Positions 5,438 to 44,044 of a DNA stretch of 63,411 nt are shown here, piece by piece. Made by a program: the position numbers and the translations under genes. Origin of the DNA: a virus. Taxonomy: Duplodnaviria > Caudoviricetes. The DNA is taken from IMG/VR virus record IMGVR_UViG_3300030106_000472, positions 1 to 63,411 of that record; one strand, given 5' to 3'. The notes under the pieces were generated by a model. The model did no database searches. It saw only the letters and a list, made by a program, of their open reading frames with translations, and had not been told where the DNA came from. Positions within the stretch are counted from its first letter, which is position 1. Every line of letters begins with the position of its first letter.

Positions 5438-5527
5438 CTATAAAGTATATTCGAAAAAAATTTTTTCGCAAAATTTTTACACTAGGGACTTATTCATAAA
5501 TTACTTGCAAAAGCGGATGCAAGTCCA

Positions 5528-5543
5528 GGGGCGGGCGGGTGGG
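5528..5543 (+). other. perfect G-quadruplex motif GGGGCGGGCGGGTGGG
   Basis: Four G3+ runs with 1-nt loops. Confidence 0.75.
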
Positions 5544-5621
5544 ACCCAGCAGGCGACCGTAAAAGGGGGTATAGGGGTAGCGTATAAGCGATTTAGGGAT
5601 AGAAGTAGATAGGGGAGCGGG

Positions 5622-5652
5622 AAAAGAAAAACCCCGCAAGGAGCGGGGTTTT
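5622..5652 (-). terminator. intrinsic terminator
   Basis: Minus strand AAAACCCCGC-TCCTT-GCGGGGTTTT followed by TCTTTT, downstream of ORF 5671-6006. Confidence 0.85.
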
Positions 5653-5670
5653 AAGGGAGCGGAAAGGGTA

Positions 5671-6006
5671 TTAACTTACAGTTATAAACCCTTTAGATAC
5701 CAACATACCTTTATAGAAGGACCAGATTTTAGTAGGCGTTTGTACTGTTTGTAAACCTACTTCGTCTAACTTACTATTTAAACCCGCTTCGTCCGTACCT
5801 ACTAACTGCTCTACGGTTAGCGTATGGTTAGGGGCTTTAGTTAAGGCTTCTAGTATTTTACCCGCTTGGGCTGGTACTTTACCTTTATTAGTTATTAAAG
5901 TAATAACCGCGTCCTTGCTATAACTACGTCCGCTAGGGGCTTTATAGTTAGTATCTATTAAGCTAGTTTTAGTAGTAGTAGCGTTAGTTTTATTTACGTT
6001 TTTCAT
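5671..6006 (-). CDS. hypothetical early protein, paralog 1 of 3
   Basis: Highly similar to 6333-6641 (IDTNYKAP.GRSYS.DA...PAQAGKI...SKLDEVGLQTVQTP.KIW.FYK). Confidence 0.85.
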   Translation of the reverse strand: MKNVNKTNATTTKTSLIDTNYKAPSGRSYSKDAVITLITNKGKVPAQAGKILEALTKAPNHTLTVEQLVGTDEAGLNSKLDEVGLQTVQTPTKIWSFYKGMLVSKGFITVS

Positions 6007-6081
6007 TTTTATAGTTTCCTATTTAGCGGTTTATTATAGTTTAGTTATTAATTAGTACCGCTTTAACTAAGTAATAAGGTA

Positions 6082-6110
6082 ATTGTACTACTAACCGCTT
6101 TACTTGTAAA
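6082..6110 (-). promoter_or_regulatory. sigma70-like promoter
   Basis: TTTACA-17 nt-TACAAT. Confidence 0.7.
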
Positions 6111-6209
6111 TACCCCTTTACTATTTATTTTAAGTTTATTTTTGGCTCGTCTCTTTACCTATAAGCTACTTACCTTGTTCGTCTCTTCGTCTCTTCTTCT
6201 ATTCTTTGT

Positions 6210-6224
6210 GGGAGGGCGGGTGGG
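6210..6224 (+). other. perfect G-quadruplex motif GGGAGGGCGGGTGGG
   Basis: Four G3 runs with 1-nt loops; shares GGGCGGGTGGG with 5533-5543. Confidence 0.75.
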
Positions 6225-6239
6225 TGAACAGGCGAAGGG

Positions 6240-6277
6240 TAGAGTAGAGTAGAGTAGAGTGATAGAGTAGAGTAGAG
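6240..6277 (+). repeat. (TAGAG)n pentamer array
   Basis: About 7 units with one TGA interruption. Confidence 0.9.
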
Positions 6278-6298
6278 CAAGAGACGATAGATTTGAAC

Positions 6299-6332: not shown

Positions 6333-6641
6333 TTAGCTGACAGTTATCAGACCATCCGAAACCAATCTAGCTTTGTAGAACTGCCAGATCTTTCTAGGTG
6401 TCTGCACTGTTTGAAGTCCAACCTCATCCAGTTTACTATCTAACCCAGCCTCATCTTTACCGATAAGGTCCTGGACTGTCATCGTGTGGTCTTTAGCTTT
6501 CACTAAGCACTCGATAATTTTACCAGCCTGAGCAGGCAGTTTACCTGTAGGCGTTGCAACTAATGTAATAATTGCATCGTTGGAATAACTACGACCAGTT
6601 GGTGCTTTGTAGTTAGTATCTATAGTTTTTTCTGTTTTCAT
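6333..6641 (-). CDS. hypothetical early protein, paralog 2 of 3
   Basis: SD AGAAAGGAGAAA; paralog of 5671-6006. Confidence 0.85.
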   Translation of the reverse strand: MKTEKTIDTNYKAPTGRSYSNDAIITLVATPTGKLPAQAGKIIECLVKAKDHTMTVQDLIGKDEAGLDSKLDEVGLQTVQTPRKIWQFYKARLVSDGLITVS

Positions 6642-6723: not shown

Positions 6724-6840
6724 CACTAATAGAAACTAATTTACTTTTAATAAATGGATCACAGAAGGCAGGAATCGTCTCTTCTTCTAATCGTCTCTTC
6801 GTCTTTTGTTCTCGGGTATGGGTTCGTGGTCCGTTGGTGT

Positions 6841-6871
6841 TGATAGAGTAGAGTAGAGTAGAGTAGAGTAG
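6841..6871 (+). repeat. (TAGAG)5 pentamer array
   Basis: Second copy of the 6240 array, just downstream of the TerS stop. Confidence 0.9.
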
Positions 6872-6882
6872 ATTGATTGAGC

Positions 6883-7416
6883 TCAATCCTTTTTGGAGAA
6901 CTCACCTTCGATCACGTTTGACTCGCTTGCTCGCTTCTTGATCATTTCTTCAAGTCGAGTGAGTATGTCGTCTTTGGACATCATATCGATCTTCGCGGTC
7001 AGGATCTCGCGTCTATCAATGTAGAGTCCACCTGCTTTGCCTCGATGGACCTCCGCTGTGATGGCTGCGGATATCTGACCTTGCTCTTTTGCCTCTTCCC
7101 GTAGTTCGTGGAGAGTGGACAAATGGTTCTCTAGAGAAACTGCGTCCTTCTCTGAGGCTGCGATTTCCAAGTCGATGAGGTAGTTTCTAACAACTGGGTT
7201 ATGATTTAGTAGAACACTGCCTTGTGTCTTCGCTCCCTTCCTGTCCTTTGTATACCCTGCTTTAATAGCTGATTCAGTAGCTGTTTGTCCTTTCAAATAC
7301 TCCTTACAAAACAGTTTTTGCTTTGAGTTGAGCGGTTGCCATATCTTACCCTTGTCATCAACATATGCTTTACCATCTTCTGTCGGCATTAATGATGTGT
7401 ATGTTAGCTGTTTCAT
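6883..7416 (-). CDS. terS: terminase small subunit
   Basis: LNSKQKLFCKEYL...ATESAIKAGY...GSVLL HTH pattern, AAITAE..RGKA.GLY; SD AGGAG before ATG 7416. Confidence 0.88.
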   Translation of the reverse strand: MKQLTYTSLMPTEDGKAYVDDKGKIWQPLNSKQKLFCKEYLKGQTATESAIKAGYTKDRKGAKTQGSVLLNHNPVVRNYLIDLEIAASEKDAVSLENHLSTLHELREEAKEQGQISAAITAEVHRGKAGGLYIDRREILTAKIDMMSKDDILTRLEEMIKKRASESNVIEGEFSKKD

Positions 7417-7485
7417 CGTATCTCCTGGACTTACCAAATGTTATTATAATAATATTAGAAAACTATATCAATTATATACTTTTCT

Positions 7486-18318: not shown

Positions 18319-18678
18319 TTAGTCCTCCTCTCTGTTTTCTTCAACAGAGTAATTTACATCATCAGCTTCTTCTACTAGGTTTTCTATATTAGTAGTATTA
18401 GTCATGATGTGTTCTTCAGTTAATAATAAATACCTACGCAAATCCCGTATATCATCGAGTAGACCTGCCTCGCCTTTATAGACTTCACCTGCCTCGAATA
18501 TATCCCAACCATGCTTTTCAGCTTGGTGCTCGATCCTATCGAACTTACGTGCTAACATCATAAAAGCACCTACACCTCCACGACGTTTCCAAGAGTCGCC
18601 ATACGACGTTTCGGCTCGTTTAAGAGCTTCTAAATCGTTTTGAGCAGACTCTTTCATTTTTTCCCATTTATTACTCAT
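18319..18678 (-). CDS. nucleotide-modification-associated domain 1 (Nmad1)-like / all-alpha NTP pyrophosphatase-like protein
   Basis: YGDSWKRRGG.G...ARK.DR and D...DL..Y pattern; adjacent to the TS homolog. Confidence 0.7.
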   Translation of the reverse strand: MSNKWEKMKESAQNDLEALKRAETSYGDSWKRRGGVGAFMMLARKFDRIEHQAEKHGWDIFEAGEVYKGEAGLLDDIRDLRRYLLLTEEHIMTNTTNIENLVEEADDVNYSVEENREED

Positions 18679-19717
18679 GAGTTTCTCCTTCGTCCGTTTT
18701 GTTAATAATCGTCTTGTCTCTTTTACGGACCCAATCGAAACAAGCCGTTCTCCAATCAGAAGCTTTTATCAAATTTATCTTGTCGTAGACTTCTTTAAAA
18801 TTCTTCATTTTATATGCTGCATAAACCTCCATCATAGGAATCGCTATATCAGTAAACGCGGGGTTGACCCAACCGTGATCATAAGAACTTATGTCCATAG
18901 GATGCATATTAAAAAATCTATTAAGTTCCCAATCTAACACAAACATATCTTTGAATAATAAACTAGGCTTATAATCCTTTAGAGTATCATAAGGATTCTT
19001 TATATCTCTATACGTGTATACATCTATCTCCATATGTTTAACTTTGTCCCAAACAGGGTTCAAATAAATATGAAAACTATCACTAACTTGTCTATACACA
19101 CCAACCTCGACCTCTAGATGAGCAGCTATGTATTCTTGTAATACTGACATGTGAACCACGTTAGCACCATAAGCCCCCCACAACATATCGTTTGATCGAT
19201 TACATACTGTCATGTTTAATTTGTTATCTCGTATCTTAAAATAAATGTTAGTATTACAAGGAACATCTTTGCCTTGTTTATCTAAATCATGAACTGCATC
19301 CCACATTTGTAAAACAGCACGTCTGTCTTCAGGATTCTTTTGTAACATTTTAACAATAACATCTAACTGATTTTTAAGAAAATACGTTCTCCATCTATAA
19401 CCATAGGCTCCCCATAAAGTCTCGCCATCATCTGAAAAATCTGCCATAGATTTAACAAAATAAGTTAAGGGTTTTAAATCGTTATGTCCTGCTAACATCC
19501 AAAGACTTTCTACGAAGTGGAAAAAAGGATTAGCATCTCTTTGTTTAATTAAACATACTCGTTCACAAGGTTTACTATAAACTGTTGTGACAGGCTCTAA
19601 AGCCTCATATGTTGTTCCATTACGACTTTCTTGTACTCTATAAGATGTATCATCTAAAAATAAATCGATACCAAGTAACATAGCATCGTTTACATTTCTT
19701 GCGTTAATCACCCTCAT
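18671..19717 (-). CDS. thymidylate synthase homolog, probable dUMP hydroxymethylase
   Basis: SRNG, RDANPFFH, GAYG.RWR, catalytic PCN, RSND..WG.YGAN, SFHIY. Confidence 0.85.
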   Translation of the reverse strand: MRVINARNVNDAMLLGIDLFLDDTSYRVQESRNGTTYEALEPVTTVYSKPCERVCLIKQRDANPFFHFVESLWMLAGHNDLKPLTYFVKSMADFSDDGETLWGAYGYRWRTYFLKNQLDVIVKMLQKNPEDRRAVLQMWDAVHDLDKQGKDVPCNTNIYFKIRDNKLNMTVCNRSNDMLWGAYGANVVHMSVLQEYIAAHLEVEVGVYRQVSDSFHIYLNPVWDKVKHMEIDVYTYRDIKNPYDTLKDYKPSLLFKDMFVLDWELNRFFNMHPMDISSYDHGWVNPAFTDIAIPMMEVYAAYKMKNFKEVYDKINLIKASDWRTACFDWVRKRDKTIINKTDEGETHE

Positions 19718-19935
19718 AATGTATCCTGATACCCGTCTATTATTTCACCGATAAGAAAACTTATCTCACTTTCATTTAATCCAGGAAGTTTTCTCTTTAT
19801 AAAAGCTACAGCCATTTTATGGTCAGCAGCAACCTTTAAAAAGAAAGCAACTTCTAAGAACTGGGTATAATATATGTCAACCGAGTCGCCCCAATCTTCT
19901 AAAAGCTCAACTGAATATTCGTTAACTTTTCCCAT
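19714..19935 (-). CDS. hypothetical protein in modification cluster
   Basis: Overlapping start/stop with both neighbours. Confidence 0.65.
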   Translation of the reverse strand: MGKVNEYSVELLEDWGDSVDIYYTQFLEVAFFLKVAADHKMAVAFIKRKLPGLNESEISFLIGEIIDGYQDTL

Positions 19936-20854
19936 ATTTACTTTCTCCTTCTATTAAATCTTCTACTATAGGAAGATTATTTTGTTTATATATAGACCTT
20001 GTTCTGCCTTCTCCTCTGAGAATACGTGAGTATTTATCGAACTCACAAAGTCCTCCTTCTATTTCGCGTAACTCATATAATCTATCGTTACGCATGGTTA
20101 TATGTGGTGGTAGTCTATCCACAACCAGTGCATATAACTCTTGCATTTCTCTATTCCAATCATGACTACGATGAGAAAAATCTAATTTTCTGCCTGTTAA
20201 CCTGTTAAGTCCTCGCATAGCTCCTGGACCTGCATTAGCCCACGTCATAATATCTGTAGCTTCATCCAACACATACGTATGTCTTAAATCAGTAACTACC
20301 TCGTATGCCATAAATGGACCCATGTATGGGTATTGTGTTAGTAGAGTCCAAGCAGACTTTAAAGAACTTATTCCCTCTCCTTTATCAAACTCTAAGCGTT
20401 TAATTAACCAAGTCTTTTCTGCCCATAAATTATTTATACAATCAACAACACCTGTAACCTTATCCATACCGTTTGGTGTTTTAATAATATAAGAACCAGT
20501 AATCCACTGAGGTTGTTCTGTTATAAGTTTGATAGCTTTATCACCGTCCCAGTTCACTAATAAGTCATTCTCTATAAGCGTTCTACCTGTAGGTATAAAA
20601 TTAAACCAACGAAAAATAATCGTAGCCATAATAACATCTGAACTATTTGCTAGAGGTTCTCTAATATGTGTTCTAAACCACCTAGTCGTTCTGTCATCTT
20701 CTCGGAATACTTGACAAAATTTAAACTCTTGCAAAATAGGGTCGTCTGTCCAAGGTGGAGAAAATTTAGACTCTTCTTTTTGAAGTCTAATCTTCTCCCT
20801 CTCTGTTTGCCAATAGCAAAAACGATTTACTTCTTCTGCAAGAAACTCAGTCAT
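19922..20854 (-). CDS. 5-hmdU DNA kinase helical domain (aGPT-Pplase1 family)
   Basis: ER..I..K...PWTDDPILQ.FKFC.VFREDDRTT.W, FRWFN, GPFMAYEVVTDL, GPGA.RGL, IE..LCEFDKY.R. Confidence 0.85.
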   Translation of the reverse strand: MTEFLAEEVNRFCYWQTEREKIRLQKEESKFSPPWTDDPILQEFKFCQVFREDDRTTRWFRTHIREPLANSSDVIMATIIFRWFNFIPTGRTLIENDLLVNWDGDKAIKLITEQPQWITGSYIIKTPNGMDKVTGVVDCINNLWAEKTWLIKRLEFDKGEGISSLKSAWTLLTQYPYMGPFMAYEVVTDLRHTYVLDEATDIMTWANAGPGAMRGLNRLTGRKLDFSHRSHDWNREMQELYALVVDRLPPHITMRNDRLYELREIEGGLCEFDKYSRILRGEGRTRSIYKQNNLPIVEDLIEGESKYGKS

Positions 20855-21765
20855 TACTTTTTCCTTAAAACCCAAGAACAGTTGTTAGCGTACTCAGGGT
20901 ATGGTGTTGCTGCTACTACACGTAAAAACTGTCTACCATACCTAGACTCTAACATTTCTAATTGTTCAGGTGACCATGCTCTAGGGTATCGTTTTACATT
21001 TGAATAAGTAGGTATTCCATCTACAGAAGGTTCTACTTGTTCCTTCATAGCTTTCCTTAGATTAGGAAGTTGTATAAACGTTCCTGTAACATCTACTATT
21101 TCAAAATTACGTTCTAGTTCTTGTTTAAGTTCTTCAAAACCCCACTCATATACGTGGTCTTCAGGTAGTTTATCGTTAGAACCGTCATGGTTAGGTGTAG
21201 ACACAAAAGCCAATGCGTTAGGTCTCATTGTCCTAGCGGCATCGTCTAACCAAGGACCAACAAACTGTCTCCCCATGTGTTCAATAACTTCAGTAGTCCA
21301 GAAAAAGTCTATACTTTCATCAGCTATATCAAATATTTGTTTAGGGTTTTGAAGGTCTCTTATTACAGTTAAGTCTTGTATTCTTATTTCTCCGTTAAAG
21401 TTTTTAAACCATGTAGAGTCTTTTAAAGGCTCTCCACCATTAGACCAAAAAGGGTTTTCTAACTCACATGCAGGATCAATATCGTAGCCAAGATAAGAAG
21501 CAATAACATCTGATTTCTTTATGACATATGCTTTATATAAATTTCTTAAAGTCCAACACTCACCACAACCTACTTCAAAAGTATCTAGTGGTCTACCTAA
21601 CCGCTTAGCTTCTTCAATACACATAGAAGCTATCTTATCGAAACGACTCATATGAGCTATCTCATCTGGTCTCCAGTTTGCTAGTACACCTGCACTAGCT
21701 ATATCCATTCTTGTATTTTTACTGTCGTTTTCATTAACAGTTAATTTCTTTCTTATTGATGACAT
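20854..21765 (-). CDS. class I SAM-dependent methyltransferase
   Basis: EVGCG motif I, GYDID, EVIEH, STPN, H..EW...EL. Confidence 0.85.
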   Translation of the reverse strand: MSSIRKKLTVNENDSKNTRMDIASAGVLANWRPDEIAHMSRFDKIASMCIEEAKRLGRPLDTFEVGCGECWTLRNLYKAYVIKKSDVIASYLGYDIDPACELENPFWSNGGEPLKDSTWFKNFNGEIRIQDLTVIRDLQNPKQIFDIADESIDFFWTTEVIEHMGRQFVGPWLDDAARTMRPNALAFVSTPNHDGSNDKLPEDHVYEWGFEELKQELERNFEIVDVTGTFIQLPNLRKAMKEQVEPSVDGIPTYSNVKRYPRAWSPEQLEMLESRYGRQFLRVVAATPYPEYANNCSWVLRKK

Positions 21766-22256
21766 TATTGATTTACCTCCCACCAACTTGGTTTATTTCT
21801 ACCCTTTTCCCATTTAGCGTAATGTTTTTCGTTTATAACATAATTACGATAAGCGAGAATAGAGTCCTCGTTTTTATACTCATCTGGCATAGCTTGTGCT
21901 ACGTCAGTCATGAGACCTCTAGTAATGTTTTTAGGCATTACATATAAAGCATCAGCTAATTTTTTAACACTAGCATGAGTACGTTTGTAGCGATAAGAAT
22001 ACTCATTACCTAACGCTAAAAAATGTTTATAGAGCCACCAGTAGTTACCACTACATTCTCTAGCCCATATGGTGCACGGATGATTCATGTAAGCTTTCTT
22101 GTATAAACCAACTTCGTCTGCATAATCATCTCCGTCTAATATTCGGTGAGCAGTGCATAACATCTGTGCAGTTTCTAGAGGCATCTTGACCAACATCTTG
22201 TCGGGCTGAGCTTTAGCAGAAACTACAGGATCCTCACTAAAATAAAATATGTTCAT
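21765..22256 (-). CDS. pyrimidine-dimer glycosylase (DenV)-related protein
   Basis: MNIFY..DP..A...DK..VKM.LE.AQML.TAH, NHPCT.W, EY..RY..H, QAMPD.YK...AYR.Y. Confidence 0.75.
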   Translation of the reverse strand: MNIFYFSEDPVVSAKAQPDKMLVKMPLETAQMLCTAHRILDGDDYADEVGLYKKAYMNHPCTIWARECSGNYWWLYKHFLALGNEYSYRYKRTHASVKKLADALYVMPKNITRGLMTDVAQAMPDEYKNEDSILAYRNYVINEKHYAKWEKGRNKPSWWEVNQ

Positions 22257-22295
22257 GGTTTTCTCCTTTCTTTAAACATAGAATATATAATAACC

Positions 22296-22325
22296 TTTAT
22301 ACTTTACTTTTATATGCAAAGTAAA
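22296..22325 (-). promoter_or_regulatory. sigma70-like promoter for the modification cluster
   Basis: TTTACT-18-TATAAA followed by SD AGAAAGGAGAAA. Confidence 0.5.
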
Positions 22326-22331
22326 GAACTT

Positions 22332-23828
22332 TTATATTTGATAGTGCCGTGGCGATTTAGGCTCAATCAGATATAAATTTTCTTTTGTCCTCGTTATACC
22401 AACATAAAACACCCTGTTTTCATCATCAGGATTTTGTTGATAGTTTTTATATACTCTAGTCGTTATGTCCGTTAACAGCACTACGTTGGTAGCTTCGCCT
22501 CCTTTAGCGGCATGAATAGTAGACAATCGTATACGTGGTTGTTTTGTTATTTTTTCTCCTCTACGTAACATAGCTCTTATATAACTTATCTCGCTAGGAC
22601 TTAGTAGAGTAAAAACGTCATACCAATGACCATCAGGTAAATCAGAAAAGTGTTCTTTTAGGTCTTGATATTGAAATGTTAAATTAGAATCTAACATATC
22701 TAACTTCTTATGTTTTTCTACTTTTACAAACTTTAATATATTAGCTGATTCGGTAAGACTTATAGACTCTCCTTTTCGTAACCTTTCCCAATATATGACA
22801 GCTCTCACTTTTGCTTCAGATATACTTGGTCTGCCTTTTACCTCGAAAAACCATCCCTCGTTTCTACAATACTCATCTACGTCTTCTAATAAGTAATTAG
22901 TTCTAGCTAAGACTAACCAATCTCCTTTTTCCATGTTTACTAGTTCTATGTTAGGTTCCCACCTAACCATCCCTTGTTCTTTTCTAGGTGTCCATTCCTT
23001 ATATATCCTAGATCGAACTTGACCAATACATTGTCTAGCGACCTCATGAACAGCAGCAGGGACACGATAAGACTGCTCTAACACTAAAGCATCTTTTGAG
23101 TTTTGTATCAAATAATCAACATCGGCTCCTGCCCACTTGTATATAGCTTGATCATCATCACCTGCTACATATATCTTCTTAGCTTTTTCTGCAATCTTGC
23201 GTACTACAGCCCATTGTAAAGGTGATAAATCTTGAGCTTCGTCTACAAACATAACATTTAGTTCTGGTATATCTCCTTCTTCTAAAAACTTATGTAACAT
23301 ATCCGTGTAGTCAACTAACAACCTGTCTTCTTTAAATAACTGTAATCCTTTAGCAAAACGCTCTAGTTCAAACCAACCCACAGCGTCTTCTACATCATGC
23401 CATTGTTCTTTTAACGGCACATTACGCATCCTAGCTAAGTTCTCTATAAACGCTAATCTATCATCATGAGTCATACCAAATATATGACCATCATCAGATG
23501 TCGTTCTTCCTGTAAGTCGTAAATTAAGTTTGTCGTTTAAGTCTTTTATGTCTGTATGACTTACTACACTTTCTCTTGTTAAACCTAGTTGTCTAAAAGC
23601 TAACGAGTGTAACGTTCTAAAGAAAGGAAGTTCTTTATCGCTGATATTGAACTTAGTCATGGCTCTTTGCTTACCTTCGTTCACTGCTTTTTTAGTAAAT
23701 GTAAAAAACCCGATAGAATCAGGGCTAGTGCCGTTTTGTAATTCGTCTTCTATAAGCCCGAGTAGAGTGCTCGTCTTGCCTGTTCCAGGAGGTCCAAGAA
23801 TAACTTGTGTGTGGCTAGGTAACGTCAT
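22332..23828 (-). CDS. SF1 (UvrD/Rep-like) helicase
   Basis: GPPGTGKT, TFTKKA, RTLHS, VDEAQD, GDDDQAIY, QSYR, STIHAAKGGE, YVGITR. Confidence 0.92.
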   Translation of the reverse strand: MTLPSHTQVILGPPGTGKTSTLLGLIEDELQNGTSPDSIGFFTFTKKAVNEGKQRAMTKFNISDKELPFFRTLHSLAFRQLGLTRESVVSHTDIKDLNDKLNLRLTGRTTSDDGHIFGMTHDDRLAFIENLARMRNVPLKEQWHDVEDAVGWFELERFAKGLQLFKEDRLLVDYTDMLHKFLEEGDIPELNVMFVDEAQDLSPLQWAVVRKIAEKAKKIYVAGDDDQAIYKWAGADVDYLIQNSKDALVLEQSYRVPAAVHEVARQCIGQVRSRIYKEWTPRKEQGMVRWEPNIELVNMEKGDWLVLARTNYLLEDVDEYCRNEGWFFEVKGRPSISEAKVRAVIYWERLRKGESISLTESANILKFVKVEKHKKLDMLDSNLTFQYQDLKEHFSDLPDGHWYDVFTLLSPSEISYIRAMLRRGEKITKQPRIRLSTIHAAKGGEATNVVLLTDITTRVYKNYQQNPDDENRVFYVGITRTKENLYLIEPKSPRHYQI

Positions 23829-24409
23829 AAACCACTTCTAAAAGTTAAATTGATTCTTTCACCTGCTTTTTCTAAATCAGGAACAGCGTGAGTAGACGTC
23901 ATTTGATTATGTCCGTCAAACATTAAAACATCACCATGCTCTAGTAAAAAGAACTGTTCATTTATTAAAAAGTTTTCTTTCCTGACCTCTATCTCACTGG
24001 TGTCTGTTTGCATTTTAATTGAGTTCTCATACGTTCTTTGAACAAAAACTCTAGGAGCACCTAACGAAATTGAAACAACGATATCGTCTAATGTAGGAAC
24101 CGTGTCTGAATGATGAGGAATCCCTTTGCCATCAGTACCGTAGTAACCACATAAACAAAACGTAAATTGTTTATCAACTCCTAACTCATTCCACACAAGT
24201 TTTTCTGCTTTTTGTTTGATATGATACATAGAGTCAGTCCAAGGAGTAGGCTTATACAACTTACCTGCGTAGTCAAAAGAAGAACTACCAAAACCTTTTG
24301 TAGGTCTGCCTTTTACAACTTTGCCTTTAAACTTTCTTTCTCTAGGCTTGTCCCATTCTGTAATATTTGGGTCGCAGTTTTCAAAATATTTTTTAATATA
24401 AATGATCAT
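23825..24409 (-). CDS. AlkB-family 2OG-Fe(II) dioxygenase
   Basis: HSD (HxD), SISLGAPR.F, HAVP, RINLTFR. Confidence 0.88.
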   Translation of the reverse strand: MIIYIKKYFENCDPNITEWDKPRERKFKGKVVKGRPTKGFGSSSFDYAGKLYKPTPWTDSMYHIKQKAEKLVWNELGVDKQFTFCLCGYYGTDGKGIPHHSDTVPTLDDIVVSISLGAPRVFVQRTYENSIKMQTDTSEIEVRKENFLINEQFFLLEHGDVLMFDGHNQMTSTHAVPDLEKAGERINLTFRSGL

Positions 24410-27297: not shown

Positions 27298-27616
27298 CTA
27301 TTTCTCCTTTCTGGTGTAAATTGATATCAACGGGGTAGTATAAACCTTCCTGCCTATCCCACTTTAAGATACTATATTTACCTCGATTATAAAATGCAGC
27401 GATAGAACACGCTACGCCAATGGCTGCAGGGTCGCCTATTAATAATAAGTAATCACCTTCTTTATAGTCCTGTAAAAGACTTTTCATCCTACGAACTGAA
27501 GGAGACGCACTTAACATAATTTGAGTATTAGAAGGTAAAAGGACTTGAAAATCACCATACTGCCTAGCAGAAGCAATGTTTCGTCCTGGAACTTCTTGTA
27601 CGACATATACTGTCAC
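27275..27616 (-). CDS. conserved hypothetical protein
   Basis: GTG with strong SD; VYVVQE...A..YG...DYLLL.GDP...LKWDRQ..YYP. Confidence 0.75.
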   Translation of the reverse strand: MTVYVVQEVPGRNIASARQYGDFQVLLPSNTQIMLSASPSVRRMKSLLQDYKEGDYLLLIGDPAAIGVACSIAAFYNRGKYSILKWDRQEGLYYPVDINLHQKGEIDEQETNL

Positions 27617-27647
27617 TTTTTTCTCCTTTCTTATTTCTAGTTATTAA

Positions 27648-27676
27648 ATAATATATACCAATTAAGGCAAAGTAAA
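27648..27676 (-). promoter_or_regulatory. sigma70-like promoter of the replication operon
   Basis: TTTACT-17-TATTAT. Confidence 0.65.
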
Positions 27677-27699
27677 GCTATTACCGATATGTCTTTTTA

Positions 27700-27850
27700 A
27701 AATATAAAAAAGTTTTCTAAAAAATTTTATAAGAATAGCTAATATTACTAATAAACTAATACTGACTACTATAAAACACAGTGTTTAAGAGAATATACCA
27801 GTATTAGATTTAAAATATCAATATTAGAGGGCATGGGGAATCTATTAGCT
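27700..27850 (+). promoter_or_regulatory. AT-rich iteron-like element, candidate origin copy B
   Basis: CTAATA x3 (27739, 27748, 27756), TAGAGGGCATG (27825-27835), in the divergent intergenic region. Confidence 0.55.
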
Positions 27851-27913
27851 TGGGCTATATATTACTCAGATTGTAATATATAATCTCAATTAGAAATTAG
27901 AAAGGGTATATAC

Positions 27914-29356
27914 ATGAATTATAAGTTTAAGACTAAACCATATAAGCATCAGTTATTAGCATTAACTAAATCATGGAACAAACGTGAGTACGCTTATTTT
28001 ATGGAAATGGGAACTGGTAAGTCTAAAGTTCTTATAGACAACATAGCTATGCTTTATGATAAAGGCGGCATTAATGCTGCAATAATAGTTGCTCCTAAAG
28101 GTGTTTATAGAAACTGGTCAGAAAAAGAAATACCGTCCCATATGCCAGAACATATAGAAAAACATATTGGTGTATGGACTCCCGCACCTACGTTAAAACA
28201 AAAGAAAGAACTAATGAAGTTGTTTGAGGTAGGACATGATTTAAAAATACTTATTATTAATGTAGAAGCTTTTAGCACTAAAAAAGGAGTGGCTTTTGTT
28301 GAAAGATTTATTCTAGGACATCATGCTTTAATTGCTGTAGATGAATCAACCACTATAAAAAACCCAAAAGCTCAAAGAACTAAAAACTTATTGAAGTTAG
28401 CAATCAACACTAAATACAGAAGAATACTAACAGGGTTTCCTGTTACTCAATCACCTTTAGATTTATATAGTCAAAGCAGTTTCCTATCCCCACAATTATT
28501 AGGTTACACATCGTTTTATTCTTTTCAAAACAGATATGCTAAATTAATCAATCGTAAAATGGGAACTAGATCTTTTAGACAAGTTGTTGGGTATCAACAT
28601 TTAGACGAGTTAACTAAAAATGTAAATGAGTTCTCTTATAGAGTGCTAAAGAAAGAATGTTTAGACCTTCCTGATAAAGTATATCAACGTAGAGAAGTAG
28701 AACTAACAGCTGAACAAAAGAAAGTTTATAAAGAATTAAAAGACTATGCTATAGCTGAACTAGACTCTCATGAAGTAGTTAGTGTAACTTCTGTTCTTAC
28801 ACAAATACTCAGATTACACCAAGTTGTTTGTGGTTTTGTTAGACACGACAACGGTGAAGAAGTAGAAGTTAAAAGCAATCGTTTAGATGAGTTAATCAAT
28901 GTATTAGAAGAAGTACAGGGTAAAACTATTATATGGGCTAACTACCAATATGATATAAAACGAATATTAAAAACATTACACAACATAACAGGTGTTGATA
29001 GTGTAGCTACTTATTACGGAGAAACACCAGACCAAGAGCGTCAGGAAATAATTAGAAGATTCCAAGATCCAAATTCAGACCTACAGTATTTAATTAGTAA
29101 CACACAAACAGGAGGTTATGGCATAACACTTACTGAAGCAAGTAACGTTATTTATTACAGTAATAACTACGACTTAGAAAAACGACTACAGTCTGAAGAC
29201 CGTGCTCATCGTATAGGACAAACTAATAAAGTAACTTATATTGATTTAGTAGCTAAAGGAACTGTTGACGAAAAAATTGTAAAAGCTTTACGTAACAAAC
29301 TTAGTTTAGCCCAAGAAGTTCTTGGCGATGAAAAGTGGAAAGACTGGATAGGCTAA
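27914..29356 (+). CDS. SNF2-family SF2 helicase
   Basis: EMGTGKS, VDES, LTG.P..QSPLD, GGYGITLT, QSEDRAHRIGQ. Confidence 0.93.
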   Translation: MNYKFKTKPYKHQLLALTKSWNKREYAYFMEMGTGKSKVLIDNIAMLYDKGGINAAIIVAPKGVYRNWSEKEIPSHMPEHIEKHIGVWTPAPTLKQKKELMKLFEVGHDLKILIINVEAFSTKKGVAFVERFILGHHALIAVDESTTIKNPKAQRTKNLLKLAINTKYRRILTGFPVTQSPLDLYSQSSFLSPQLLGYTSFYSFQNRYAKLINRKMGTRSFRQVVGYQHLDELTKNVNEFSYRVLKKECLDLPDKVYQRREVELTAEQKKVYKELKDYAIAELDSHEVVSVTSVLTQILRLHQVVCGFVRHDNGEEVEVKSNRLDELINVLEEVQGKTIIWANYQYDIKRILKTLHNITGVDSVATYYGETPDQERQEIIRRFQDPNSDLQYLISNTQTGGYGITLTEASNVIYYSNNYDLEKRLQSEDRAHRIGQTNKVTYIDLVAKGTVDEKIVKALRNKLSLAQEVLGDEKWKDWIG

Positions 29357-30066
29357 GCCATTTTAAATTTCATAAGATCAGCCATAGCTTGATCTTTATC
29401 AGAAACACCTCTACCCATTTGACCTACAACATTTTTCATAGCTTGTTCTTGAACAGCAGGTTTTTGTAGATTTTCCATAATCATTTGTCTTAGTATATCA
29501 GTATCACCCATAGACATACCATCAGCCGCGTACAGAGGTCCACCCATATTCATAAAGCCCATGTTGTTTCTAACATCTTTAGGAAGTTTAGGCAATCCTT
29601 TGTTACCTGCGGGTATTGGTTTTAATGCACCACCACCGTTCATCCTTTGAGGATTTTGATCCATAGCACTTTCAACACCACCTGCCATACCTCCTGCTGC
29701 ATTTTCAACACTAGCAATCAACATAGCTTTTGCATTATCTAACACAGCAATAGCAGCACCTATATCACCTTGTGCTCTACCAACTACAGCTTCAGCTAAC
29801 ATCATTGAATCTTGTTCTAAGTTCATTCCTGGTGCTTCCATTGGTGGTGCTTCCATAGCAGCCATTTCGCCCATTCCTGGTTCAGGCATAGGGGAAGACA
29901 TGGGGGGTCTTTCCGTAGCAGCCATTTCACCCATCGGAGGCATTGGAGGTTGTCCGCCACCCATCGGAGGCATTGGGGGTTGTCCGCCACCCATCGGAGG
30001 CATTGGAGGTGCGTTTTGCGTGCCTCCCTGTGTTCTTATATTCATTAAATCTTCTATGCCTGCCAT
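29353..30066 (-). CDS. Met/Pro/Gly-rich putative internal virion protein
   Basis: End of the virion operon; low complexity; MNGGG and MNMGG motifs. Confidence 0.7.
   Translation of the reverse strand: MAGIEDLMNIRTQGGTQNAPPMPPMGGGQPPMPPMGGGQPPMPPMGEMAATERPPMSSPMPEPGMGEMAAMEAPPMEAPGMNLEQDSMMLAEAVVGRAQGDIGAAIAVLDNAKAMLIASVENAAGGMAGGVESAMDQNPQRMNGGGALKPIPAGNKGLPKLPKDVRNNMGFMNMGGPLYAADGMSMGDTDILRQMIMENLQKPAVQEQAMKNVVGQMGRGVSDKDQAMADLMKFKMA
29928..30010. repeat. 30-bp coding tandem repeat, about 2.7 copies (PPMPPMGGGQ)
   Basis: CACCCATCGGAGGCATTGGRGGTTGTCCGC repeated. Confidence 0.9.
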
Positions 30067-39711: not shown

Positions 39712-41445
39712 TCAAAAAGTGTATATTTTTAAAGGTTTTTCTTTACCTTTTACTTTTATTGGTTTTAACGGTCTTAGTGTTATACCACAGTAAAGCTCTG
39801 TTTCTTTCCCTATTAGTATGTTTACACCTGCTTCTTTAGTTGCTGATTCTAGTCTAGCAGCGGTATTAACAGCATCTCCTATGGCTGAATAATCGAACCT
39901 AGTATCACTACCCATGTTGCCTATAACCGCTTCACCTGTATTTACACCTACACCAATTTCTACACCAATATCAGCGTTTATTATATTTTCTTGTATTTCT
40001 TTTGCACATTTCACAGCTACTTGTTCGTGATGTTTTAAATCCATAGGTGCATTAAATATTGCCATCATAGCATCGCCAATATACTTGTCTACCATTCCTC
40101 CATATTTTTGTACTGCATCAGATTGTATTGTTAATGCTTTATTCATTATCGAAGTTACTTCTTCTGGTGAAAGTGTTTCAGATAAAGCTGTGAATCCTCT
40201 AACGTCTGTGAACAAGAAAGTACACCTTCTTTTTTCACCACCTAATTTCAATAAGCTAGGGTCTTTTTGTAAACGTTTAACTTGTCTAGGGTCAAGATAA
40301 TGTTCAAACTGTTTTTTAATTTGTTGTCTAAGTTTGTATTGTTCTCTAAATCTTAAATAAAAAGCTATAGCTCCTGCGATAAACTGCGAAACTAAAGACC
40401 ACGTAACATCTATCAAAAGACCTGTGGTTATCGTGTAGTAACCGTATACGCCCGTTAAAGCCATCGTAAGTAAAGCTAAGCTTACGCCCCACGTTATCCC
40501 TAAATAGCTTATAAACGCCCATACGAGCACCACAGACACTATAAATATTAAAAGTTCTAAAGCTAATGCGTAATCAGGTATATAAGGACTATCTTGTATA
40601 AGAATGCTTTCTGCAAGTGCTGCTTGTATTTTATGTGGTTCAAGTAAACCAACAGGAGTTGCAACTTGCGGCATTACTCCATTAGCGGTAACGCCTACAA
40701 ATACGAATTTACCGTTTACGTCCATTTCCTGTAAATCTGTTTGTGGTGTATCTACCCAACTAATCCACTTACGACCAAGACTATCTGTTTTAACTGGTGG
40801 TATTCCTCTAACAGCTATTTCTTGTACACCATTTTCATTAGTCGTAATAATATACGTACGGGCTTCTGTTAAACTTTTTAACACATGTGTTCCGAAAGAA
40901 GCAGTCCAACCGTCAGGAGTTCTTAATAAAAGTGGAATACGTCTAACTAACTGGTCTACTTCAGTAGGGGCTATAGCAACTCCTTGTGGTACGTCATCGT
41001 ATAGATAAAAATTTCGTTTTACTCCTGTAGAAGAAAGACCACCAACATCAGGTCCTTTAATTACTGTTCCTGTTGTTTTAGGATAGTTTTGATTACCGTC
41101 TTCAAACGTAGCTATTACACTTGGTGCATAACCTAACGAACTAGCAAATCTTTGGTCTCCGCCCATTCTGTCTGCTTGTGGAAAAGAAATAACCCAACCA
41201 ACACCTATGGCTCCTTTGCCTAATATTTCTAACTGTATATTAGCTAAACGTTCTCTAGGTAATGGATAACCCCCTTCTCTTTCTACATCGTCTTCAGTTA
41301 TATTTAGAATAACAAAATTACCAGACGGTTCTTGTTCTTGTATTAAGGCATCAAACGTTTTTAATTTAAGTATTTCTGTCGGCGTTGTTTGAAATAATAA
41401 AGGTAATACAAGTATTGCTAATATAGGTATTATCAGTTTTTTCAT
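39712..41445 (-). CDS. CHASE2-domain class III adenylate cyclase
   Basis: N-terminal TM, extracytoplasmic CHASE2-like domain, 3 TMs, LFTDVRGFT, DKYIGDA, DY..IGDAVN.AARLE. Confidence 0.92.
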   Translation of the reverse strand: MKKLIIPILAILVLPLLFQTTPTEILKLKTFDALIQEQEPSGNFVILNITEDDVEREGGYPLPRERLANIQLEILGKGAIGVGWVISFPQADRMGGDQRFASSLGYAPSVIATFEDGNQNYPKTTGTVIKGPDVGGLSSTGVKRNFYLYDDVPQGVAIAPTEVDQLVRRIPLLLRTPDGWTASFGTHVLKSLTEARTYIITTNENGVQEIAVRGIPPVKTDSLGRKWISWVDTPQTDLQEMDVNGKFVFVGVTANGVMPQVATPVGLLEPHKIQAALAESILIQDSPYIPDYALALELLIFIVSVVLVWAFISYLGITWGVSLALLTMALTGVYGYYTITTGLLIDVTWSLVSQFIAGAIAFYLRFREQYKLRQQIKKQFEHYLDPRQVKRLQKDPSLLKLGGEKRRCTFLFTDVRGFTALSETLSPEEVTSIMNKALTIQSDAVQKYGGMVDKYIGDAMMAIFNAPMDLKHHEQVAVKCAKEIQENIINADIGVEIGVGVNTGEAVIGNMGSDTRFDYSAIGDAVNTAARLESATKEAGVNILIGKETELYCGITLRPLKPIKVKGKEKPLKIYTF

Positions 41446-42563
41446 TAATCACTTTGAGTAATAGTAATTACGCTATCACTTCCTCCATTAACTTTAATTA
41501 TATTAGATACCCCGTCCTGTATCAAAATAACCGTATAAGCATTACCACCATCTAAATCAACTCGTACACTTTCATTTACTTGTCTTCGTAAGCTAATAAC
41601 ATTGCCTGTTATTAAAGTTGTTATCTGTGTATCTGGGTCTTTACCTAAAAGAGTTCCTGATATTTGTGTGCTTGTTGCTTGTGCTAATTGATCTTCTTCT
41701 TCTGCTACAGCTAATGCATCTAATACATTTAATAAATCTTCTAAATAATTTACGTCAAGATAATTTATATCTAGTTCAGTAAATTCTAAATTATCTTCTT
41801 TTAAAAAATCTTCTGCAAGATAGTCTATGTCTAAGTCGTTAAAATCTAATACGCTATCTGTTTGTGCTGTAGTAGTTTCTTCTTCAATACTTTGTTCTTC
41901 TTTGGGAGGAGTGACGATGAGCATATTATCTATTACATCTAACGTTAAATCCAGGATAACAGGTTTAGTAGGAGCAGATTCAAATACACTTACTGTAGTT
42001 GCTTCATACGGTTTGTTTAATATAACGGTTCCCATAGCAGTAACTACTTCTATTTCTCCACTAGATAAACCTAAAGGGTCTGGAAGTAAAATAATAAGTG
42101 AACGTCCTAGTTCGTCAACAGTCGCTGTGAAATCTGTTCCACGAATTGCTATGTTTGCCGTAGGTGTTTTAAGTGTGATGTTTTGTTTATCTATACGGTT
42201 TAGATTACCTGTAATAAACCTTGCTGTGCCAAGACCAAACGTAAGAGCCATTTTTGCTTTACTAGGATCAGGGTCATAGATGTATTCATCTATAAGAAGT
42301 TGAGAGTGTTCGGTAAGTTTTACTGTAGAATTATCAAGAAATGTAATAGCCATACGACCATTTGTTGTTATGGCTTCATCGTTGCTTTGAATAGCAAACT
42401 TTAAATTAGCTTCGTATGGTTTGTCTCTTAGTATTTGTGCTGAACCGTTTAATTCAGATATGCCACCAATATCAGCATCCGAGACTTGTGCCTTGATCGT
42501 TTTGAACGACACACACAGAAGAAGCAGCATTACCACCGACGGATATAATTTTAAGCCAGTCAT
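41445..42563 (-). CDS. FecR-domain protein
   Basis: Signal peptide, I.F.D.S.V.L..S.L, G.ARF, TPTA.I.IRGTDF. Confidence 0.85.
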   Translation of the reverse strand: MTGLKLYPSVVMLLLLCVSFKTIKAQVSDADIGGISELNGSAQILRDKPYEANLKFAIQSNDEAITTNGRMAITFLDNSTVKLTEHSQLLIDEYIYDPDPSKAKMALTFGLGTARFITGNLNRIDKQNITLKTPTANIAIRGTDFTATVDELGRSLIILLPDPLGLSSGEIEVVTAMGTVILNKPYEATTVSVFESAPTKPVILDLTLDVIDNMLIVTPPKEEQSIEEETTTAQTDSVLDFNDLDIDYLAEDFLKEDNLEFTELDINYLDVNYLEDLLNVLDALAVAEEEDQLAQATSTQISGTLLGKDPDTQITTLITGNVISLRRQVNESVRVDLDGGNAYTVILIQDGVSNIIKVNGGSDSVITITQSD

Positions 42564-43203
42564 TATCTTGGGTACTCAGTTGTTGGATATTAAATGTTCT
42601 TTGTCCGCCTGTATGATCTAGGTAAAAATATCCACCTGCTGAAGCATTTACACCTGTTCCTAAATAAGTAACTGTGTTATCACTACCGTCAATATCCATA
42701 AAGTTAGTAGCCCCATCAATATTTATTGTTGATGTGACCGTGTTATTAGATCCTTGTATTATCCAGTCTAAATCTAAAGATGCTGCTAACGCTGTCGTTC
42801 CTTGATTTAAAGTGAACGTATTGCTACTGCCTGTAACAGCAACATTGTGGTTAGAGCTATTAGCCCCATAAGTATTCGTTGGGTCTACTTGTATAGTGAA
42901 ATTATTAGTTGAGCCTGTAAAGTTGTAAGCTCCTGTAAAACTATTAGCTGTTATATCTCCAAGAAATTTATTAGTTGCACCAATCATATTGATGTCTAAT
43001 GTCATTCCTGTTCCATCTAAATCGAAAGGATTCAAGCTGCCTGATGTTGAATTAAGACCACCAATAATATTAGAAATACCTAGTTGCTCTAGGTCTATAT
43101 TGGCACCAGTTCCTGACTGATCTACATATATCTCATTATCAGCCGCAAATAACGGAAATAAAGTAAGACATAACAAAAGTTGTATGCACTTCTTCATCAT
43201 CAT
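42472..43203 (-). CDS. curlin-like secreted beta-solenoid protein
   Basis: Signal peptide, DNEIY.DQ.G, repeated I.G..N strands rich in N/G/T/S; follows csgG. Confidence 0.7.
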   Translation of the reverse strand: MMMKKCIQLLLCLTLFPLFAADNEIYVDQSGTGANIDLEQLGISNIIGGLNSTSGSLNPFDLDGTGMTLDINMIGATNKFLGDITANSFTGAYNFTGSTNNFTIQVDPTNTYGANSSNHNVAVTGSSNTFTLNQGTTALAASLDLDWIIQGSNNTVTSTINIDGATNFMDIDGSDNTVTYLGTGVNASAGGYFYLDHTGGQRTFNIQQLSTQDNDWLKIISVGGNAASSVCVVQNDQGTSLGC

Positions 43204-43207
43204 AATT

Positions 43208-44044
43208 TCATTCTACCTTTTTTTCCTCGTTTTGTAAAACCCAATAACCTCTTTCATAACCTTGTTTAATTATTTCTAACACACCACCCTCAATAGCTTT
43301 CATTAAAGCTATGGTAGATGACTCGTTTCTTGCGTTACCCATTTCTATTTCTACTAGTTCAGTACCTGCTTCAATAAATCTAAATACGTCATTAGATTTG
43401 CCATAACTAAAAATAGTTTTCTGGCTTAATACTTCTAACAATACTTCTCCTGTAGCTACAGAAACCATTCTAAGACTAACTGTAATATTATCTTCCCTAT
43501 ATTGAACGCTAGTACCAATACCTAAATATCTTGCACCAGAACCCCCAGATTCTAAATTAGATTCATAAGATATAACAGCACCTTCTATTAAAATACCTGC
43601 GAATAATAACGGTGCTAATTGTTTTTTCTTTTCTTCTTCGCTTGCAAACTGTTCCCTTGCTGAACGTATTAATTGTCTTTCTTTAGTTAGGTTATCTAAA
43701 CCAACTCTTTCAACAACTCTAAAAAACTGACCATTACCTGCGTGTTTTAAAGCTCGGATAAGAAGTGCGTTTGGTTGTTGGGTTATTGCGGTACTAAACA
43801 AAGCAAACTCACTGTTACTTTTACGTTGCCCTGTTTGATCAGTAAATGCCGTAGGATATACAGCAACAACAGGACTGACTTTAGGAACTTCTACATCACG
43901 TAAATAAGGAGATTGTAGTTCTTGTATAGAAACTACATTATGTGCTTGAAACCTATGTTCGTACGTATCTTCAAGTTGATCAAAAGTAGAACAACTAGAA
44001 AGTAAAAGTACCGATAGGAATAACGATCGTTGTAATTGTACCAT
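43208..44044 (-). CDS. csgG: curli secretion channel CsgG
   Basis: Lipobox LLSSC, AVY..F.DQTGQRK...STA.TQ, F.VVER.GL.NL..ERQ.IR, GG.GARY.GIG...QYR.D.V.LR.VSV.TGE.L. Confidence 0.92.
   Translation of the reverse strand: MVQLQRSLFLSVLLLSSCSTFDQLEDTYEHRFQAHNVVSIQELQSPYLRDVEVPKVSPVVAVYPTAFTDQTGQRKSNSEFALFSTAITQQPNALLIRALKHAGNGQFFRVVERVGLDNLTKERQLIRSAREQFASEEEKKKQLAPLLFAGILIEGAVISYESNLESGGSGARYLGIGTSVQYREDNITVSLRMVSVATGEVLLEVLSQKTIFSYGKSNDVFRFIEAGTELVEIEMGNARNESSTIALMKAIEGGVLEIIKQGYERGYWVLQNEEKKVE

Follow-up and report, generated by a model that had tools for sequence, protein, structure and literature searches.

Why should a phage genome hold one short stretch from which thymines followed by guanine, and to a lesser degree those followed by cytosine, have been removed on both strands? 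This question is raised by a locus in the IMG/VR virus record IMGVR_UViG_3300030106_000472 (Duplodnaviria; Caudoviricetes). The window, i.e., the whole stretch of DNA analysed here, is this complete record of 63,411 bp (rated 100% complete). The stretch in question, hereafter the island, belongs to a cassette between the terminase genes terS and terL and carries a single gene, copy 1, next to a close paralog of normal composition, copy 2, which serves as internal control (coordinates in Table 1). Sequence comparisons support the conclusion that this segment has been recoded at the DNA level against the needs of its protein and is under ongoing selection.

An initial annotation of the locus had described a segment (5497-6224) lacking TCA/TGA except where the start codon forms one (6003-6005), and lacking CAC/GTG between two G-quadruplex (G4) motifs. 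Both descriptions proved accurate. TCA/TGA occurred at 5494, 6003 and 6225 with none in between, the middle site being the TCA of TCAT, the reverse complement of the copy-1 start codon plus one base, and CAC/GTG occurred at 5539 and 6208, both inside the G-rich motifs. This leaves gaps of 509 and 222 nt for TCA/TGA and of 669 nt for CAC/GTG; the next-longest gaps in the genome measure 297 and 336 nt, respectively. Chance was assessed with 200 first-order Markov genomes, recording the longest word-free gap in each. The longest gap without TCA/TGA averaged 225 nt (maximum 345) and the longest without CAC/GTG averaged 352 nt (maximum 571), so that the observed 509 and 669 nt exceed all simulated genomes. 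The genome as a whole contains 1207 TCA, 761 TGA, 687 CAC and 645 GTG. Copy 2 holds nine TCA/TGA, as the annotation had estimated, and seven CAC/GTG, compared with one and none in copy 1.

The depletion is broader than these trinucleotides: CA/TG and GA/TC dinucleotides are scarce in almost every trinucleotide that contains them. Between 5546 and 6207, relative to the rest of the genome, CA/TG was found 20 times with 77.9 expected (0.26x) and GA/TC 38 times with 72.4 expected (0.53x). AT stood at 0.68x and TT at about 1, and TA (1.62x), CG (1.61x) and CC/GG (1.54x) were raised. The low trinucleotides comprise ATG/CAT, GCA/TGC, ATC/GAT, ACA/TGT, CAG/CTG and CAA/TTG, every NTG context and most TC contexts being low, and within the TC contexts ATC/GAT (0.31x) was scarcer than TCG/CGA (0.74x). 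This breadth argues against the proposal that half-sites of Type I restriction systems had been removed, as does the abundance of TCA and TGA throughout the genome, since a nuclease reading those words would still cut elsewhere.

A scan of the whole genome in 400-nt windows normalised for base composition, one of the checks that the annotation had suggested, located the genome minima of CA/TG (0.20, z -5.0) and GA/TC (0.24, z -4.5) and the genome maximum of TA (1.81, z +5.8) in the island. For each of the seven remaining dinucleotide classes, the lowest window (z -2.6 to -3.5) lay outside it. Both strands were alike, with normalised ratios (rho) of 0.29 for CA and 0.30 for TG, and of 0.46 for GA and 0.54 for TC. 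We grouped the TG/CA and TC/GA dinucleotides as TS contexts (T before G or C, both strands). Counted in this way, 16% of island thymines have G or C next, compared with 36% genome-wide, and the value falls to 4% in the 200-nt window from 5941, which covers the promoter and gene start. Non-coding DNA of the island is purged as well as coding DNA. Given the equality of the strands and the inclusion of non-coding DNA, the constraint appears to act on double-stranded DNA and not on codons or mRNA.

The same scan placed the genome maximum of GA/TC (rho 1.71, z +5.1) at 6776, in the repeats upstream of copy 2 and about 600 nt from the genome minimum. A second region of low TS content (27598-27948) was considered and rejected: it is AT-rich divergent intergenic DNA, its low count follows from its low G+C, and it was no outlier after normalising for composition. 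Positions 27617-27913 of this region separate minus-strand genes from the only large plus-strand gene, a SNF2-type helicase (27914-29356), and are a candidate origin or early-promoter region.

The coding sequence shows how far the purge has been taken. Copy 1 contains 27 TS dinucleotides, near the lower end of the range that its protein allows (18-129), where the codon usage of the genome predicts 66 +/- 5 (z -7.8); copy 2 contains 76 (z +1.7). Protein constraint, as the annotation had argued, thus does not explain the depletion. The two proteins are 74% identical (71/96 aligned residues), and comparison of their synonymous codons revealed the same codon at only 35 of 77 identical residues. 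Copy 1 encodes valine by GTA in eight of nine codons and avoids GCA for alanine, and the synonymous differences between the copies include many transversions (ACA to ACT, GTC/GTT to GTA, GCT to GCC/GCG). Translational codon selection was tested as a cause and rejected, because the major capsid gene does not have the copy-1 codon pattern (GCA 12, ACA 9, ATA 1) and because non-coding DNA is purged too.

The same island was found at the same place and with normal flanks in five viral contigs (L001-L005; 86-97% protein identity). Their island genes contain 24-31 TS dinucleotides (z -6.8 to -7.4), i.e., the depletion is kept in all five orthologs. We aligned the six islands and replayed the number of substitutions of each sequence at random positions with the observed substitution spectrum. 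New CA/TG dinucleotides numbered 2-7 with 12.7-21.2 expected (P <= 0.004 for each of the six), and new TS dinucleotides 7-16 with 22.4-37.9 expected. Avoidance of CA/TG was not significant in the copy-2 control region (five sequences, P 0.16-0.66), where the lowest P values for TS were 0.045 and 0.063. As the sequences are related, the six tests are not independent, yet the contrast with the copy-2 control is clear. The spacer downstream of the gene is strongly divergent among three sub-lineages and CA/TG-poor in all of them. Together, the near-minimum TS count and the substitutions that avoid the depleted dinucleotides indicate that the depletion is actively maintained. The annotation's view of a segment recoded to evade a sequence-specific defence is therefore upheld as far as recoding under selection is concerned; its basis in Type I restriction sites is not.

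More distant relatives (L007-L010, including the complete 65-kb genome G001) at first comparison appeared to lack the island. However, at the corresponding position G001 carries a second paralog that has diverged further and is 57% identical to copy 1; this rules out simple insertion of the island. This second paralog holds 22 CA/TG with 33 expected (z -3.2), its TC/GA content does not deviate significantly, and the spacers of G001 at this locus are CA/TG-poor as well (rho 0.31-0.56). A homologous second paralog of intermediate depletion means that the island is no recent insertion. We extended the comparison to 68 homologous open reading frames (ORFs) from 55 viral loci plus the window. Values of z <= -6 were confined to the six copy-1 orthologs, and weaker depletion was seen in one locus with a single hit (L072) and, in four more lineages with two paralogs, in the second copy. 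First paralogs were never depleted, and in one two-paralog lineage (L026) neither copy was. As judged from these sequences, the purge is a graded, lineage-wide tendency of the downstream copy that has become extreme in the sub-clade of the window.

Which process would discriminate thymines by the base that follows? 5-hydroxymethyldeoxyuridine (5-hmdU) DNA kinase starts post-replicative thymidine hypermodification, and the genome encodes such a kinase (5-HMUDK). In a Pfam scan of 56 ORFs, its product matched PF18723 over residues 16-287 (E 2.1e-40; 139 bits against a cut-off of 25). The nearest cultured homologs belong to Pseudomonas phages Epa5 (43%) and PAE1 (Yuavirus, 35%), and tblastn gave 32% identity to the homolog of Acinetobacter phage SH-Ab 15599. 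The kinase was found in three of five related records, the two others being fragments of 23% completeness. Beside it lies a divergent thymidylate-synthase homolog, whose scores (98.9 and 69.5) fall well short of the ThyA equivalog cut-offs (174.6 and 327, respectively). Also beside the kinase is a 310-aa protein with a sub-threshold methyltransferase match, unrelated to the PF18724 enzyme of Epa5, and the kinase cluster (18671-24409) further holds a T4 endonuclease V-like (Pyr_excise) protein and an AlkB-like 2-oxoglutarate (2OG) oxygenase.

Published target contexts of such systems resemble the contexts that the island lacks. Modification motifs were still unknown as of Lee et al. 2018 (PMC5889632), according to that paper. 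Flodman et al. (2019, PMC6449724) state that resistant restriction sites in the DNA of phages M6, ViI and phiW-14 share TG or TC (there also written TS); the authors inferred a kinase preference for TG/TC and noted that the M6 kinase acts on TG. For SH-Ab 15599, a 2026 paper (PMC13458397) places most of the modification at TG, with TC modified less and TT or TA far less. Sites with CATG, TGCA and GATC were blocked there and those with TCGA, CTAG and GTAC only weakly, MboI (GATC) being strongly blocked and TaqI (TCGA) only weakly. The ranking in the island (TG 0.26x < TC 0.53x < TT ~1 < TA 1.6x) is the order of hypermodification reported for SH-Ab 15599. The match extends to the finer level: ATC/GAT is lower in the island than TCG/CGA (0.31x and 0.74x), as MboI is blocked more strongly than TaqI. 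Kinase target contexts, TG and then TC, hence fit the depletion better than Type I half-sites.

Since the kinase is present and the depleted contexts match published targets, we read the island as purged of the phage's own hypermodification target. That the cassette (promoter, gene and terminator) has been selected to escape this hypermodification is the explanation we favour, and we consider the case for it about evenly balanced. The kinase would prefer TG over TC, and the genome would actually carry hypermodified thymines. A self-contained cassette, comprising regulatory repeats, a sigma-70-like promoter, the 111-aa gene and a terminator between the only two G4-type motifs of the genome, would then have been cleared on both strands of thymines before G and, less strictly, before C. 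The result would be a stretch of about 670 bp nearly or wholly free of bulky thymine adducts, while about one third of the thymines elsewhere presumably stand in target contexts; selection would keep the stretch modification-poor. The most likely benefit to the cassette would be DNA that is read alike whatever the modification state of the genome. Such reading may be promoter recognition and transcription by the host RNA polymerase on the injected, fully modified genome or, alternatively, binding by a protein, possibly the encoded protein itself. Copy 2, with its normal composition, could serve the same function in a form exposed to modification. Although strongest at the promoter and 5' end, the purge spans the whole unit and both strands, which points to a property of the duplex and not to a single site.

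Several points weigh against this explanation. That the DNA is modified at all, and where, we infer from a gene, and the thymidylate-synthase homolog is a candidate dUMP (deoxyuridine monophosphate) hydroxymethylase by sequence similarity. The amino-acid:DNA transferase PF18724 (aGPT-Pplase/ADDT), the usual next step after the kinase, was not found in this genome or in G001; the same search was positive in PAE1 (E 2e-48) and Epa5 (E 2e-25). The pathway may therefore differ from the known one, and the thymine derivative of this clade may be new. No comparable island was found in the cultured kinase phages Epa5, PAE1 and SH-Ab 15599, whose minimum TS rho (0.78, 0.75 and 0.79, respectively) compares with 0.23 in this genome, so that phages of this kind do not generally have an island. 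The CTCTA and AGAGACGA repeats outside or at the edge of the island are rich in TC/GA, and avoidance of TC around the cassette is thus not absolute. Finally, the effects of thymine adducts on transcription by T7 RNA polymerase in vitro are only moderate and either positive or negative in a further study (PMC11550810), and a transcriptional benefit is therefore not a given.

Across whole genomes, TS rho was 1.16 in Epa5, 1.11 in PAE1, 1.15 in SH-Ab 15599, 0.97 in this genome and 0.96 in G001. SH-Ab 15599 (L077) has an HU-beta-like gene (41491-41766) at a mild TS minimum (rho 0.82, z -3.7), a value that lies within the tail of the distribution for a 143-kb genome and is not significant alone. 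The product is a small DNA-binding protein, a kind of gene product to which that of the island may be likened.

The locus consists of two similar modules. Nearly all genes of the genome lie on the minus strand, and the gene order is terS, copy-2 module, copy-1 module, several small genes, a 2OG oxygenase, a 601-aa protein and terL (59-1585). In each module, a (CTCTA)n array and repeats of the AGAGACGA type accompany a promoter-like site, a gene about 100 codons long and a terminator hairpin (Table 1). Two contigs from RNA libraries overlap 5899-6174; they reach past the predicted promoter on its upstream side and may stem from carried-over DNA.

Table 1 Features of the island, its surroundings and the putative thymine-modification genes
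Feature	Position	Strand	Remarks
G-quadruplex-type motif GGGGCGGGCGGGTGGG	5528-5543	+	downstream island border; on the copy-1 template strand
Island poor in TG/CA and TC/GA	5544-6209	.	promoter, gene, terminator and ~100 nt of downstream spacer
Intrinsic-terminator-like hairpin after copy 1	5628-5652	-	10 pairs, 6 of them G-C, then T run
Island gene, copy 1	5671-6006	-	111 aa; weakly supported winged-helix-like fold; in no known family
Sigma-70-like promoter of copy 1, TTTACA-17-TACAAT	6082-6110	-	10/12 matches; consensus match only
Tandem TTCGTCTC repeats	6178-6204	.	upstream of copy-1 promoter; also upstream of copy 2
G-quadruplex-type motif GGGAGGGCGGGTGGG	6210-6224	+	upstream island border
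(TAGAG)n array	6239-6277	.	between the two modules; second array 6844-6872
Paralog, copy 2	6333-6641	-	102 aa; normal composition; internal control
Terminase small subunit (terS)	6883-7437	-	upstream neighbour of both modules
Divergent thymidylate-synthase homolog	18671-19717	-	348 aa; candidate dUMP hydroxymethylase beside the kinase; PF00303, E 1e-22
5-hmdU DNA kinase (5-HMUDK)	19922-20875	-	317 aa; PF18723 HMUDK_hel

The island borders coincide with the only G3-N1-7 x4 motifs of the genome, both of which contain the 11-nt direct repeat GGGCGGGTGGG. One such motif stands at each border in L002, L003 and L005, and G001 has none. Assemblies tend to break at the same places. The contigs L001, L004 and L006 stop at window position 5528 (L004 in a poly-C artefact), contig L003 begins at 6239, and contig pieces from two metagenome runs stop at ~5484-5572 and ~6251-6278. 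These repeated breaks could reflect sequencing failure at the G4 motif, presence/absence variants in the population or a site-specific interruption of the DNA. Some contigs in runs X6, X7 and X16 join 6261-6278 to 6895-6935, fusing the (TAGAG)n arrays and skipping the copy-2 module, through joints whose sides are short and which may come from relatives. One metagenome contig skips 4730-5442, the home of a 158-aa gene that is absent from L002, L003 and L005.

The borders and the paralog pair also permit a more specific reading of the cassette, namely as a built-in sensor or timer of genome modification, fenced by G4 motifs and free of TG/TC. A regulator-like gene would be read identically from hypermodified injected DNA and from new, not-yet-modified DNA, and the normal paralog would respond to modification. 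We mention this as an unlikely, if coherent, possibility, under which the depletion pattern would moreover be the first case of a hypermodification enzyme's target specificity being read from sequence alone in an uncultured virus.

The island protein itself matched nothing in Pfam, PHROGs or NCBIfam, and the annotation's proposal of an anti-defence or takeover factor thus found no backing there. A profile search detected no sequence relative in the PDB, Foldseek against the PDB returned nothing at E <= 1e-3, and neither Pfam on all 19 family members nor a protein atlas search revealed a function. Pfam on 20 distant representatives gave long matches to fn3 or HEAT repeat proteins, which look spurious. 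The family is small and restricted to viruses; a search of 1.8 billion proteins at E <= 1e-3 yielded 32 representative clusters. An AlphaFold2 (AF2) model of copy 1 reached a predicted local distance difference test (pLDDT) score of 81.7. Its best VIA-align matches (Z 6.7 to 5.0, residues ~40-111; Z < 8 lies within the range that the tool calls common) were mostly winged-helix domains, among them MecI, Fur/PerR/Nur, MarR, PadR, histone H1/H5, Z-alpha, RPA32C and cullin WHB. A winged-helix-like fold is therefore weakly supported by the model. One 397-aa protein (P0024) contains four tandem stretches matching the paralog family and has a borderline HARE-HTH hit (27.2 bits against 25.9). Through it the family may be distantly linked to an HTH class for which reading of modified DNA has been proposed.

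Could the purge instead protect the cassette from the host? The cassette might hold an early counter-defence gene whose DNA lacks certain words and thereby escapes cutting or blocking by a host nuclease until its protein has been made. Such a nuclease could be modification-dependent, sensing hypermodified thymine, or the pressure could come from several restriction enzymes with CA/TG in their sites. According to a further study (PMC12191111), there are nucleases that attack phages with hypermodified thymine early in infection, and small inhibitors required for plaquing are encoded by some phages. A cassette with its own strong promoter-like site and terminator, encoding a small, virus-only protein of no assigned function, would suit this role. 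Nevertheless, we regard it as quite unlikely. The rest of the genome is not purged and would still be destroyed, and the idea does not account for how sparing 670 bp would save a genome that is modified everywhere else. Classical restriction enzymes read words of 4-8 bp, not a dinucleotide in every NTG context, and if hypermodification protects TG/TC sites, the island would be the part least protected against them. The protein resembles no known anti-restriction family in Pfam, PHROGs or NCBIfam, although no collection specific to anti-defence proteins was searched. Nor did we find signs of a genome end, contrary to the annotation's placement of the segment at the leading end: the cassette sits between terS and terL, and the contig, whose ends fall between terL and the gene for the portal, showed no terminal repeat.

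Doubtful to much the same degree is a demand of DNA mechanics or protein binding unrelated to modification. TA-rich, CA/TG-poor DNA might be needed for wrapping by a nucleoid-type protein, possibly the cassette's own product, or for a structural transition set by the G4 motifs. The genome maximum of TA falls in the island, the weakly supported winged-helix-like fold has histone H1/H5 globular domains among its matches, and the genome has no G4-type motifs other than the two at the borders, both of which are conserved. What this explanation leaves unaccounted for is the purge of TC/GA and ATC in the published rank order of modification, and a coding sequence driven almost to its theoretical minimum. 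We also know of no binding protein that demands the absence of a dinucleotide over 670 bp.

A compositional relic, i.e., a cassette acquired from a donor with an odd oligonucleotide signature and as yet incompletely adjusted by drift, seems highly unlikely. Sharp borders with an 11-nt direct repeat, the frequent assembly breaks there and a paralog of only 74% identity, with 35 of 77 codons for identical residues in common, would be expected of such an import. However, the signature is actively maintained and not decaying, the second paralog of G001 at the same place shows intermediate depletion, and no donor-like genome was found among the 55 viral loci with homologs. To our knowledge, a TA rho of 1.66 is not a known genomic signature.

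Least probable of all is a local mutational bias, by transcription- or G4-associated deamination or by a process like repeat-induced point mutation (RIP) that would convert CA/TG to TA in the duplicated gene. In its favour, RIP characteristically lowers CA/TG and raises TA, one member of a paralog pair is affected, and TA and CG, the single-transition products of CA/TG, are both enriched. Against it, many of the synonymous differences are transversions, the strands are equally affected, unlike in transcription-linked damage, the protein is intact and conserved with a count near its allowed minimum that a blind process would not reach without wrecking the gene, and no RIP-like process is known to us in phages.

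To place the genome among phages, we compared large terminases. The nearest cultured relatives by this measure are marine, namely 023Pt_psg01 (58%), DSL-LC04 and the pelagiphages HTVC027P and HTVC023P (52-53%). The island region, both paralogs and the 601-aa neighbour had no match in the cultured-phage collection. Elsewhere in the genome, a run of genes unusual for a phage encodes an adenylate/guanylate cyclase that carries a fused CHASE2 sensor domain (39712-41445), a protein with a FecR domain (41445-42563) and a CsgG-like lipoprotein (43208-44044); all three products (39712-44044) also match function-unassigned PHROG families. A 30-nt tandem repeat (2.8 copies, 96% matching) occupies 29928-30010, inside or beside the ORF 29353-30066.

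Thymidine hypermodification is known to shield whole genomes from host nucleases, and where it must not occur has been an unasked question. Full-text literature searches, with subscription journals lying outside their reach, returned no earlier account of a hypermodified phage with a hypomodified or TG-poor region. If escape from hypermodification is the correct explanation, the modification would carry a local cost for some function of the DNA, and the sequence preference of a modification system could be deduced computationally in uncultured viruses. The purged and unpurged paralogs offer a natural pair for studying the effects of bulky thymine adducts on promoter use, transcription and protein binding, and the unique G4-type motifs at the borders add a second testable element.

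Among known systems, the 5-HMUDK phages M6, ViI, phiW-14 and SH-Ab 15599 are the closest comparison. They share the kinase, and their modified contexts, TG and TC, are those depleted in the island. Reports on these phages describe modification genome-wide, and none that the searches returned mentions a target-purged region; the present genome also differs in having no match to the PF18724 transferase. Phage genomes are also known to avoid restriction sites, and some phages have anti-restriction genes of the T7 gene 0.3/Ocr type in the region that enters first. The cassette is similar in that short words appear to be removed by selection independently of the protein code and in that a small, early-looking gene has its own promoter. 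Here, however, a dinucleotide and not a site of 4-8 bp is affected, over about 670 bp and not the whole genome; the removed word would be the phage's own modification target and not the site of a host enzyme, and no evidence of first entry was found. TF1 of phage SPO1 is a small DNA-binding HU homolog that prefers DNA containing hydroxymethyluracil (hmU). Like TF1, the island product is small, may have a DNA-binding fold and would belong to a phage with modified thymines, but according to its model it is winged-helix-like at best. Finally, vertebrate CpG islands are promoter-gene regions free of base modification, in which the target dinucleotide is kept and protected from the enzyme. A modification-free promoter-gene region would be common to both, with the difference that in the phage cassette the target dinucleotide itself has been removed.

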